A stretch of 64,000 nt of DNA from Octopus sinensis (GCF_006345805.1 NC_043011.1:65794464-65858463); one strand, 5' to 3'. Positions 12,443 through 36,096 are shown, counted from the stretch's first letter. The notes: a model not told the origin generated them from the sequence alone. Numbers and translations: made by a program.

Positions 12443-12505
12443 TTAGTTGTTCTTAAATAATATCACCAGAAATCCACTAAGGATTGTTGATAGTGGGGAT
12501 GCCAT
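12443..12505 (-). CDS. Gene C exon 5 (terminal): MASPLSTILSGFLVILFKNN*, hydrophobic GPI-signal-like tail
   Basis: Strong acceptor ttattctttttacag. Phase 0 matches exon 4. TAA at 12445-12443, and AATAAA on the minus strand at 12356-12361. Confidence 0.65.
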   Translation of the reverse strand: MASPLSTILSGFLVILFKNN

Positions 12506-12759
12506 CTGTAAAAAGAATAATAAAATAGGTTATGCATAAATGGTGGAAAGTATTCTGATATGGGTTATGTAAATATTTCGTTAAAATATCATTGCATTTA
12601 TCAAAAGTTACAAAATGTTTCGTCACGCTATGGAGAGTGCCTAACATTATACTGAAATATATCCTTCATTTTCTGAACGAACAAAAAGCCTCTGACATTA
12701 TTATACATTGGTAGTACTTAATCCGGTCTTTAATTCTTCAATTTGTGGCAGTAATATTT

Positions 12760-13130
12760 CGTAGCGGCCATGCCGGGGCACATGCTTTAAGGGTTCGTTA
12801 GTCGGAGAAGTCTTTACCGGTACTTCTTTGTAAGCCTACTCCTTATTTAATTGCTGACCCGCTAAGTTTCTGCGGCATAAACACCAATTCTGGTTGCCAA
12901 GCGGTAATGGAGGGACAAACAGAGATACAAAGACACACACATACACACATTGATTTATACATATTAAAGTGCCGTGTGTTTCTTTCAGTTTCCGTGTACG
13001 AAATTCATTCACCAATCTATGATTGGACCAAGGCTATTGCAGAAAATATTTGCCATGTATGACATGCAGCGGGACTGATTATAGAACCATGTATTTGGTA
13101 AACCTGCTTCTTGCAAGATAGCCAATCCTC
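12760..13130 (-). mobile_element. Degenerate tRNA-derived SINE (octopus OR-like family)
   Basis: Matches 21552-21926 (gcggccatgc..., ttctttcagtttccgt, gggactga). Confidence 0.75.
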
Positions 13131-13697
13131 AGTAACATCTCATTTACCTACTGCAGAATGGATCGTGGTTAACGTAATCACTTGATATAGAAGAGAATAA
13201 TGGAATCAATGGAACTCTCTTACTCAATTAGGTGCTTTCCATTCAATAAAGAGAGAATATATTATAAAGAATAATGAATTTAGAGTTATACAGAAATGGC
13301 ATCTTTAAACATTTTGTAAACTCTAAAAAATGAAACTCTGCGAGATATAATAAAAAGAGAAATGCTTGGGAATTTTCTTCAAAGTACCAAAATTAAAAAT
13401 ATTCTTTCCGATATTGTTTATTCTTACCTGAAGCTATACCAAAATCAACGAAGAAATTTGCTGTGCATTATTCTTGCGACTTCTATCTTATTTCAGTCAC
13501 TGGTTTTGGACTGTGTCAGACCCCCAACACAAGAAACTTTGGTCGAATTCACTTTCGCTTACATGCCTGGTGCATAATCTATCATTCTCTCTTGCCGAAC
13601 ACATAAATGACAGGAAATTAAACACGTGTACTTGTCAAACGGTATCGGTACAAACACACAAACAGATACACACTCATACATATGTGTGTGTATGTAT

Positions 13698-14165
13698 GTA
13701 TATATATATATATATATATATATATATATATATATATATATATATATATATATATATATATATATATATATATATATATATATATATATATATATATATA
13801 TATATATATATATATATACATATATATATACATATATGTATATATATACATATATATACATATATGTATATAATATATATATATATATATATATATACAT
13901 ATATATATATATATATATATATATATATACATATATATATATATATATATATATACATATATATATATATATATATATATATATATATATATATATATAT
14001 ATATATATATATATATATATATATATATATATATACATATATATATATATATATATATATATATATATATATATATATACATATATATATATATATATAT
14101 GTATATATATATATATATATATGTATATGTATATATATATGTATATATGCATATACATATACATA
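13698..14165. repeat. Long (TA)n microsatellite
   Basis: Direct inspection. Source of the spurious IYIY ORFs. Confidence 0.97.
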
Positions 14166-33540: not shown

Positions 33541-33607
33541 TATATATACATATATATACATATGTATATATATATACGCATACAAATACATATATATATA
33601 TATATAT

Positions 33608-35983
33608 TAATCAAAATAAAAACATGATGCCAAGGATTCAGCGGTACATATGTTTCGGGCCTTTATTAGACGAATTTATAACAATGCATAATGTGCGTCT
33701 GTGGCCTTCTTCAGCCGCGTACAACTACTTCTTCAAGGACATGTGTTACATCAAAAATTCTTGGTTGGGGATGCAAATCCTCTCATTCGCGGACGACGTA
33801 ATGCGGCAACAGCATGAAAATGAAGCGTCCATCTCGTTCTTCTCTCAATGTAGAATGAGGAAATTTGGATGTTGAAGTAATGTAAATACATTAATAAATA
33901 AATATATACATATATAAATATATAAATACAGACAGACGTGAAGGAACCTGGTAATAAGAGCAAATAGAGATAAAGATAAAGATGGAGGGGCGAGAATTCA
34001 GGACGAAGGATAAAAAATATATAAAAAGTGTAAGTATAGAAAAATATAAAAATGTAGAGTATAAAGATATAAAGTGATATAAAAAATATAAAAAAATATA
34101 AATGTGTATAAAGGTATGAAGTTATAAAAATAAAAATTAAAATTAAAAGTGTAAAAGAATATAAGGATAAGGGATATATAGTAGTTACGGACCAAACATG
34201 GTGGTCAGGAAAATGACAAATTCTGGTTGTAGAAGTCTTGGGTGTCATAAATCAATCGGGGTGTCTGGGGACCTAGTGTATTGTAAATTAGAGATGTTGA
34301 GCAGCTTATCTAGTTCTTCGTAACGTATTAACTGGTCATCGTGTACATACGCCCTCGCATGGATACATACACCCATATACACGCGCACATATACGCACGA
34401 CACATACACACACGCGCACATACGCATATAGATATACACACAACAGAATATGTATATATATACACGGGCAATATACATGTACATATATATACACACACAC
34501 ACACATACGCATATACATATACACACACACATATGCATACATATATATGCACATATATACATATATACACATATGCATACACACAAATATACACACGCCC
34601 ATACCCGCACACGCACATATATATATGTGTGCATACATGCACACCCACGTGTGCATGCATACACGCATACATATATACACACGGACCCATGCACACGTAT
34701 CCACACGCACACACACACACATATGTGTGTCCATACGTGCGTGTGCGCATACACTTTGATACGCATACACAGACACCCACACATATAGGTATAGATATAA
34801 GATATTAAGAGATGTATAAAAAATGTATATAAGGAATCTACAAACGCATGTAAATAAACGGACCCACGCACAGGTGTCTGCACGCACGCGCACACACATG
34901 TGTGTCTATACCTGCGTGTACACATACACTTACATACACATACACAGGCACACACACATATAGGTATAGATATAAGATATTAAAAGATGTATAAAAAATG
35001 TGTAAAAAAATATGTGTAAAAATATGTATATAAGAAATCTACAAAAGCATTTTAAAAAATTATTAAAGTATAACGGGGGGGTACACATCTAGACACAGAT
35101 ATTTACTCATACACACGCATACACATGTATATACATACATACACAGACATACGTATAATCATAAAGCGGATACATGGATAAGTAAATAAGGAAAAAAAGC
35201 TAAAAATAGACCTATATAGAGATATAAAGTGATAAAATAGGGGTAAAAATAGGAGTAAGAATAAGGGTAAGAATAAGAATTAGAAATAAAAATAAGTAAT
35301 ACGATATAAAAATTAGAAACAAAGTATAAAATTATAAAAACTATAAAAATTAAAATAAAAAATGAAAATAAAAATAAGAATAAAAGTAAAGTAAAATAAA
35401 ATAGGATAAAATAAAATAAAAATGTAATCGGGTAAGGCTAAACATGAGATGAAGGTAAAAACAAAAGGTAGTTGGAAATGTAAAATTATAGGTGTGTGCT
35501 AAAGGTGACCACGTAGGGGCGGGCGGGGGGAACTGAAAATTGGAAGGGTGGGACGCGGGGTTTGGTGGTGTGCGCTCAACATCAGAGTTAGAAATGGAAA
35601 AAGGCATCGATATAGGGAAACAAAAAATCTAGATACGAAGAATGTAGGTGTAGGAGAAGAAATATATAGGAAAAAACATATATGGGAGACAAAATGTGTG
35701 TATATAGGAAAATATATATATAGGAAAACGGGATGCGCTGGAGCCGACAGGTTGCACTAGGGTGGGAGGAAATTGCAAAGGGGAGTTGGTATAATAGCCT
35801 AAGTTTTGTAGTAATTGAAAGTATAAATAAGTTTGTGTATACAAGATGGCTTGAACTCTGACCTTTTGTTAATAACATTGTGTTTCTCCTTGAATTTCAA
35901 GATATTCAGGAGTTCTACACAACATAGTTGGCGTCCTGCTCTATTTTTTAAAAAAGGTGCAGCTGATCGGATGATGGACCGCC
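33608..35983 (-). mobile_element. Apparently non-coding hammerhead-bearing element between (TA)n tracts
   Basis: Flanked by TA repeats, with internal CA/TA-rich and A-rich low-complexity tracts and an intact hammerhead near the minus-strand 3' end. Boundaries inferred. Confidence 0.5.
33641..33718 (-). ncRNA. Type I hammerhead ribozyme
   Basis: Minus strand: gcgg CUGAAGA aggcc..agacg...cgucu..ggccc GAAA cauaug UA ccgc. All core nucleotides and stems are present. Confidence 0.85.
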
Positions 35984-36056
35984 ATATATATATATAAATG
36001 CATGTATTGAATATTAGCTATTAGAGCTCCTGTTAATGAAATAATATATTACTCAC

Positions 36057-36096
36057 GGCTAATGAGAAGTGCAATAGAAACGAGTCTCCTCATCAT
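36057..36096 (-). CDS. Gene C exon 1 (signal peptide): MMRRLVSIALLIS (40 coding nt, phase 1)
   Basis: Kozak gccATG and donor C|gtgagt. Same coding length and phase as gene B exon 1. Confidence 0.78.

Follow-up and report, generated by a model that had tools for sequence, protein, structure and literature searches.

Gene C, a minus-strand gene lying between positions 12443 and 36096 of the 64-kb window (the whole stretch of DNA that was analysed), very likely encodes a small six-cysteine cell-surface protein and belongs to an uncharacterised mollusc family. Our preferred reading, to which we give a probability of about 0.6, is that its product is a GPI-tethered, non-enzymatic binding domain of some 70 residues that acts as a ligand or co-receptor. 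That gene C is a real protein-coding gene seems to us nearly certain: judging from the alignment, the model is more than chance, as a separately annotated Octopus bimaculoides protein matches it over its whole length.

Structure of the gene

Joined by their coordinates, the five exons give 345 nt and 114 aa with a single terminal stop. An earlier note on this DNA had claimed that they join in phase without stops and that 345 nt of the span is coding; both claims proved exact, the strand (minus) having been left unstated. The coding part of exon 1 (36057..36096, minus strand, 40 nt) opens with the start codon, encodes all but the end of the signal peptide, and ends at a phase-1 donor. Exon 2 (21368..21470, minus, 103 nt; phase 1 in, 2 out) encodes the end of the signal peptide, a long first helix and Cys25, Cys33 and Cys47, and exon 3 (15381..15468, minus, 88 nt; phase 2 in, 0 out) two shorter helices with Cys56, Cys65 and Cys75. 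A variable linker with the likely omega site S87-G88-V89 comes from exon 4 (14816..14866, minus, 51 nt), while the coding part of exon 5 (12443..12505, minus, 63 nt) provides a spacer, a 13-residue hydrophobic end, three polar residues and the TAA stop.

The introns, of 14586, 5899, 514 and 2310 nt, are all four of the GT-AG type, in phases 1, 2, 0 and 0, with pyrimidine-rich acceptors and, in order, the donors GTGAGT, GTATGA, GTAAGT and GTAAGC. Exon 4 has the best splice score of the 55 stop-free candidates with phases 0/0 between exons 3 and 5, and among the same 55 its acceptor yields the three top matches to the O. bimaculoides orthologue. A weak donor lies 9 nt inside this exon; its use would drop three residues and produce an orthologue-like junction. 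Exons 1 and 5 are, on this comparison, part of gene C, because one orthologue protein carries both exon-1 and exon-5 sequence; the earlier proposal that exon 1 to exon 5 form one unit is thus borne out. An AATAAA, a candidate polyadenylation signal, is present 82 nt after the stop (12356..12361, minus strand), close to the 80 nt announced earlier, but carries little weight because an AATAAA also turned up in 1144 of 5000 shuffles of the AT-rich 150 nt that follow the stop.

Span, introns and repeats

The window is eukaryotic in character and AT-rich, with many microsatellites and retroelement pieces. Within the gene C span, 15207 of 23654 nt (64%) are tandem repeat, within-window repeat or TE-like block, the TE-like part of this figure being four blocks marked by hand. 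The description of the introns as 'TE-filled' holds to that extent, but only one of the six intronic ORFs tested matched Pfam (RVT_1, reverse transcriptase, 25555-25899). The surprise implied by 345 coding nucleotides within 23.6 kb dissolves on comparison with Octopus minor, for which PMC6279123 gives a mean gene size of 23.6 kb, with 4.2 introns averaging 5.4 kb, and a repeat content of 44% of the genome: at 23.65 kb and with four introns, gene C is of average octopus gene size.

Several elements were noted along the span. Intron 4 contains, at 13142..13415 (minus strand), an old diverged duplicate of exon 4 plus its upstream intron, with 76% identity between 13186-13415 and 14868-15096; the alignment continues through the exon, but the original acceptor AG is lost. 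A new AG is directly followed by TGA, and 33 nt further on stands a GTAAAT donor; if this AG were used after exon 3, the protein would end just past the cysteine domain. In intron 2, a near-perfect 286-nt inverted repeat (97.6%) with about 125 nt between its arms occupies 18562-19259, and an element at 15989-18367 lies between 234-nt inverted repeats that are 96% alike and has, on the minus strand, an open frame of 314 codons; the element looks Penelope/GIY-YIG-like, but a Pfam search of that ORF gave no match. A direct repeat of about 620 nt (92%) links 20224-20852 in intron 2 to 39080-39693 upstream of exon 1. The GC-richer insert at 30700-33040 (plus strand) in intron 1 contains broken ORFs (31274-31717 and 31810-32163) that look gag-like, with a Cys-His knuckle seen by eye; a Pfam search of these ORFs returned no match.

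The orthologue in Octopus bimaculoides

Exon 2 alone was searched exhaustively against 1.84 billion proteins, with two matches. One was rejected as a tandem-repeat chance match; the other is XP_052830541.1, the RefSeq-predicted isoform X2 of O. bimaculoides LOC128249942, to which gene C is identical at 69 of 114 residues, end to end and with the stop in the same position. By exon-sized segment, identities are 9/13, 22/34, 18/30, 6/17 and 14/20, so that exon 4 is the least conserved and exon 5 second best after the signal exon. In the first 76 residues, gene C has 48 in common with LOC128249942 and 35 with its neighbour LOC128249941, the two O. bimaculoides proteins sharing 36 with each other. 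Gene C is therefore best read as the orthologue of LOC128249942, to judge by the full-length similarity, the shared cysteines and the greater distance to the paralogue. At 60% identity, the DNA would come from an octopus other than O. bimaculoides.

Both loci (XP_052830540-42.1 for LOC128249942, XP_052830538-39.1 for LOC128249941) are recorded in RefSeq as 'uncharacterized protein', and the orthologue is itself a predicted model; the alternative first and last exons of these entries suggest RNA support. Two of the three LOC128249942 isoforms have no signal peptide, which counts against the preferred reading. A homologue of the alternative first exon of X1 lies inside intron 1 of gene C (23214..23289, minus strand), with its phase-1 donor kept but interrupted at codon 19 by an in-frame TGA, which lies in a short insertion. 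LOC128249941 has two isoforms, of which X1 runs 18 residues beyond the shared stop and X2 uses another hydrophobic last exon; within the 64-kb window we found neither a close copy of this gene nor a match to that other last exon. The X1 extension matches the gene C 3' UTR, about two thirds identical across the stop, the first bases of the UTR (12392-12442, minus strand) translating like the C-terminal extension; the stop was therefore lost in that paralogue or gained in the gene C lineage. A protein search with the orthologue as query did not have the gene C protein among its matches, despite shared runs of six and seven residues, and gene C therefore seems to be missing from that protein collection.

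Paralogues in the window

The gene model of the earlier note stands, but the note had missed both the annotated orthologue and the family context. Both strands were scanned for AG-GT exons of the exon-2 type (cysteine spacing 7, 13; phase 1 in, 2 out). Three were found, namely that of gene C and those at 47886-47979 and 59293-59392 on the plus strand, against none in 60 block shuffles. An exon-3 pattern, widened after a candidate had been seen, returned the gene C exon, 49177-49264 (plus) and 10292-10382, with at most one in shuffles; the last of these matches was dropped.

The plus-strand exons belong to two paralogue fragments. Of these, paralogue D comprises exon 2 (47886..47979, plus strand, 94 nt; cysteine spacing 7-13; phase 1 in, 2 out) and exon 3 (49177..49264, plus, 88 nt as in gene C; three cysteines; phase 2 in, 0 out). 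Its likeliest last exon, in the region 47886-51229 (plus), starts at a strong phase-2 acceptor at 51150 and encodes 16 very hydrophobic residues in a row, then a basic tail and a stop. This end resembles a membrane helix more than it does a GPI signal. Paralogue E has a coding exon 1 (53949..53988, plus strand, 40 nt) with a signal-peptide core and a phase-1 donor GTAAGT, of the same coding length and phase as exon 1 of gene C, and an exon 2 (59293..59392, plus, 100 nt; cysteine spacing 7-13; phase 1 in, 2 out). The 40-nt signal-exon filter is passed by 51 rows that include both of these first exons, most of the rows being microsatellite noise. No exon 3 of paralogue E was found up to the window end (64000), and LINE pieces fill the remainder. 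In its first intron, bases around 56700-56960 recur inverted near 57440-57690, as seen by eye.

A profile was built from gene C and both O. bimaculoides proteins. Paralogue E scores 12.6 bits against it, a value reached by none of 500 full and none of 500 cysteine-fixed shuffles. Paralogue D scores 9.2 bits; of 500 shuffles of each kind, one full and 11 cysteine-fixed ones reached that value. By these scores and exon patterns, the window contains three distant members of the family, gene C standing head to head with D and E. MAFFT placed exon 3 of paralogue D (49178-49264, plus strand) onto the exon-2 columns. This hints that a three-cysteine unit was repeated internally long ago to give exons 2 and 3, though it may also be an artefact of aligning fragments.

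Anatomy of the predicted protein

The N-terminus has a basic start, a 9-residue hydrophobic core (KD 2.76) and (-3,-1) sites after residues 15 and 17, as assessed by rule. These features are conserved in the orthologue, and the signal peptide proposed earlier fits this anatomy. Six cysteines, at 25, 33, 47, 56, 65 and 75 (spacing 7-13-8-8-9), are shared by gene C and both O. bimaculoides proteins. AlphaFold2 was run on the orthologue with the window exons added as extra alignment rows. The model (pLDDT 61.8) has helices at 2-15, 22-42, 47-54, 63-72 and 102-115 and a low-confidence linker at 77-104, that is, three helices in the mature part and a terminal helix; for the mature domain alone pLDDT is 73.8 and pTM 0.58, and neither model contains a strand. 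The predicted layout thus begins with the signal peptide, continues with the six-cysteine domain of three helices and a loose linker, and closes with a short hydrophobic end. That the six cysteines form three disulfides is our inference and is not read from the model.

The C-terminus and the mode of attachment

The GPI signal was assessed by rule. The minimal rule described in PMC2289202 is a small-residue pair 10-12 residues before a hydrophobic domain, and a four-part layout of the signal is described in PMC5054108. The gene C tail agrees with both as they are set out there: S87-G88 sits 12 residues before L99, the start of a 13-residue hydrophobic stretch which ends three residues from the C-terminus, these being the polar Lys-Asn-Asn. 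In the orthologue, S91-S92-S93 sits 11 residues before its own 13-residue hydrophobic stretch. Position omega+2, at which Ala, Gly or Ser is favourable, is Val in gene C and Ser in the orthologue, and Val at this position had very low but significant activity in the alkaline phosphatase tests reported in PMC2119539. A hydrophobic stretch closes each of the four related proteins examined, in one case via a different last exon. The small-residue site had earlier been given as YSG; tyrosine is not small, but the pair S87-G88 is usable. The GPI-like tail proposed at the same time is therefore kept as far as pair, spacer and hydrophobic end go, with the reservation that the likely omega site, S87-G88-V89, is weak at omega+2 and falls in the least conserved exon. 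Provided that gene C is real, these tail features make a GPI anchor probable.

A first alternative is that the C-terminal stretch is kept in the membrane as a one-pass helix that leaves three residues on the cytoplasmic side, which would make the product a tiny type I receptor or channel accessory subunit, following a RAMP-like logic. The run could stay in the membrane because 21 uncharged residues (91-111) are followed by a lysine, in the Lys-Asn-Asn end, and the weak omega+2, the very hydrophobic 16-residue run with its basic tail in the candidate last exon of paralogue D, and the long tail past the hydrophobic run in LOC128249941 X1 point the same way. In the orthologue, however, the uncharged run counts 18 residues, of which 13 form a strongly hydrophobic core, and an S-S-S site of textbook type lies at the right distance; moreover, the extra uncharged length of gene C consists of three exon-4 residues that the orthologue does not have. 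We consider the single-pass helix unlikely.

Alternatively, the gene may be real and its product mainly soluble, a secreted three-disulfide peptide-like protein, if the GPI signal is poorly used or the tail exons are skipped or replaced. The valine at omega+2, the alternative last exons of LOC128249941 and the exon-4 copy of intron 4, whose AG directly before TGA and good donor would place a stop just past the cysteine domain, are in keeping with this. Against it, the hydrophobic last exon is the second best conserved, which argues for its use, and the paralogue's other last exon has no match in the window; we regard a mainly soluble product as quite improbable.

Finally, a decaying copy, or a wrongly chosen exon 4 and hence a different true tail, might be suspected from the low identity of exon 4, the weak donor within it, the decayed alternative first exon in intron 1 and the absence of the gene C protein from the orthologue search, but this is very improbable given 345 nt without stop or frameshift, eight of eight canonical splice sites, the retention of all cysteines, the first rank of exon 4 by splice score among its 55 candidates, and a linker that varies freely between the two O. 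bimaculoides paralogues too.

For the preferred reading, a GPI-tethered binding domain, the following sequence of events can be proposed. The signal peptide, cut after about residue 15-17, would direct the chain into the ER, where the six cysteines would pair as three disulfides and so keep together a domain of three helices, about 60 residues long. A transamidase would then cut at or near Ser87, take off the last 27 residues and attach the GPI anchor, leaving a non-enzymatic domain, some 70 residues in size, that a short flexible tether would hold to the outer cell face and that could be released in soluble form. Such a binding module, ligand or co-receptor, would signal via a partner membrane protein, as neuritin or GFRalpha do; if the protein is anchored, we somewhat favour a role of this kind, by analogy. 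The tandem paralogues, in holding the cysteine frame and altering the surface, would alter their partners.

Comparison with known families

The orthologue was already known as an uncharacterised RefSeq prediction. The analysis adds a correct model of a small, intron-scattered gene, a sort often missed by annotation, and assigns it to a tandem family for which Pfam has no entry. In the freely accessible literature searched, we found no paper on the locus and no link between neuritin and octopus.

The nearest language-model neighbours are unnamed mollusc clusters (0.93 and 0.92), followed by neuritin as the best named match, at 0.84, which is below the 0.9 line of the tool, with 147 of 256 features shared. 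All ten of the best named matches share the neuritin family or clan, but so do those of a third of shuffled proteins, and the score could stem from the common layout of signal peptide plus hydrophobic tail. With hmmscan, Pfam NRN1 (PF15056) gave no match for any of the three orthologue isoforms or the five single exons scanned, and no neuritin chain is among the fold matches listed for the AlphaFold2 model. We take the resemblance as a lead only, and find it doubtful that gene C and its tandem paralogues form a mollusc arm of a neuritin/CPG15-like superfamily of neuronal-receptor ligands. Under that hypothesis, they would be ligands of a shortened, helical six-cysteine type that expanded and diverged fast in octopus, last-exon swapping giving rise to GPI, membrane-helix and soluble forms. 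The vertebrate synaptic-plasticity factor would then date to the bilaterian ancestor, and cephalopod nervous systems, for which octopuses are studied, would have a testable family of candidate cell-surface ligands that expanded in the lineage. Its three tail types would make it simple to test how the mode of anchoring evolves when the last exon changes.

Among known systems, LOC128249942 and LOC128249941 share with gene C the signal exon, the six cysteines at the same positions and a hydrophobic last exon, and differ in the length and sequence of the linker exon and in the X1 alternative first exon, which is stop-broken in the gene C window. Ly6/uPAR proteins are alike in signal peptide, small cysteine-rich domain, GPI tail (putative in gene C) and tandem clusters. 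Their domains, however, are beta-sheet three-finger structures with 8-10 cysteines and a CC..CN end, and gene C differs from them in its six isolated cysteines and a domain predicted to be all-helical. The DUF1397 27-kDa haemolymph proteins of insects (PF07165) are, like gene C, secreted and cysteine-containing, with a feature score of 0.76 (rank 23 of 30) that is within the chance range, but they are arthropod proteins of about 300 aa and the orthologue has no Pfam match. GFRalpha, GFRAL and GAS1 are GPI-anchored co-receptors with a helical cysteine-rich domain; the ten-cysteine pattern of the GFRalpha/GAS1 domain does not occur in gene C, which has six cysteines at 7-13-8-8-9. Neuritin has six cysteines in a helical domain with middle spacings of 8 and 7, similar to the 8-8 of gene C and the 8-7 of paralogue D, but outer spacings much longer than those of gene C. 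It is also the longer protein, at 142 aa (PMC12715718) versus 114, but both are small and both combine an N-terminal signal peptide, in neuritin as described in that source, with a C-terminal GPI signal, which in gene C is putative.
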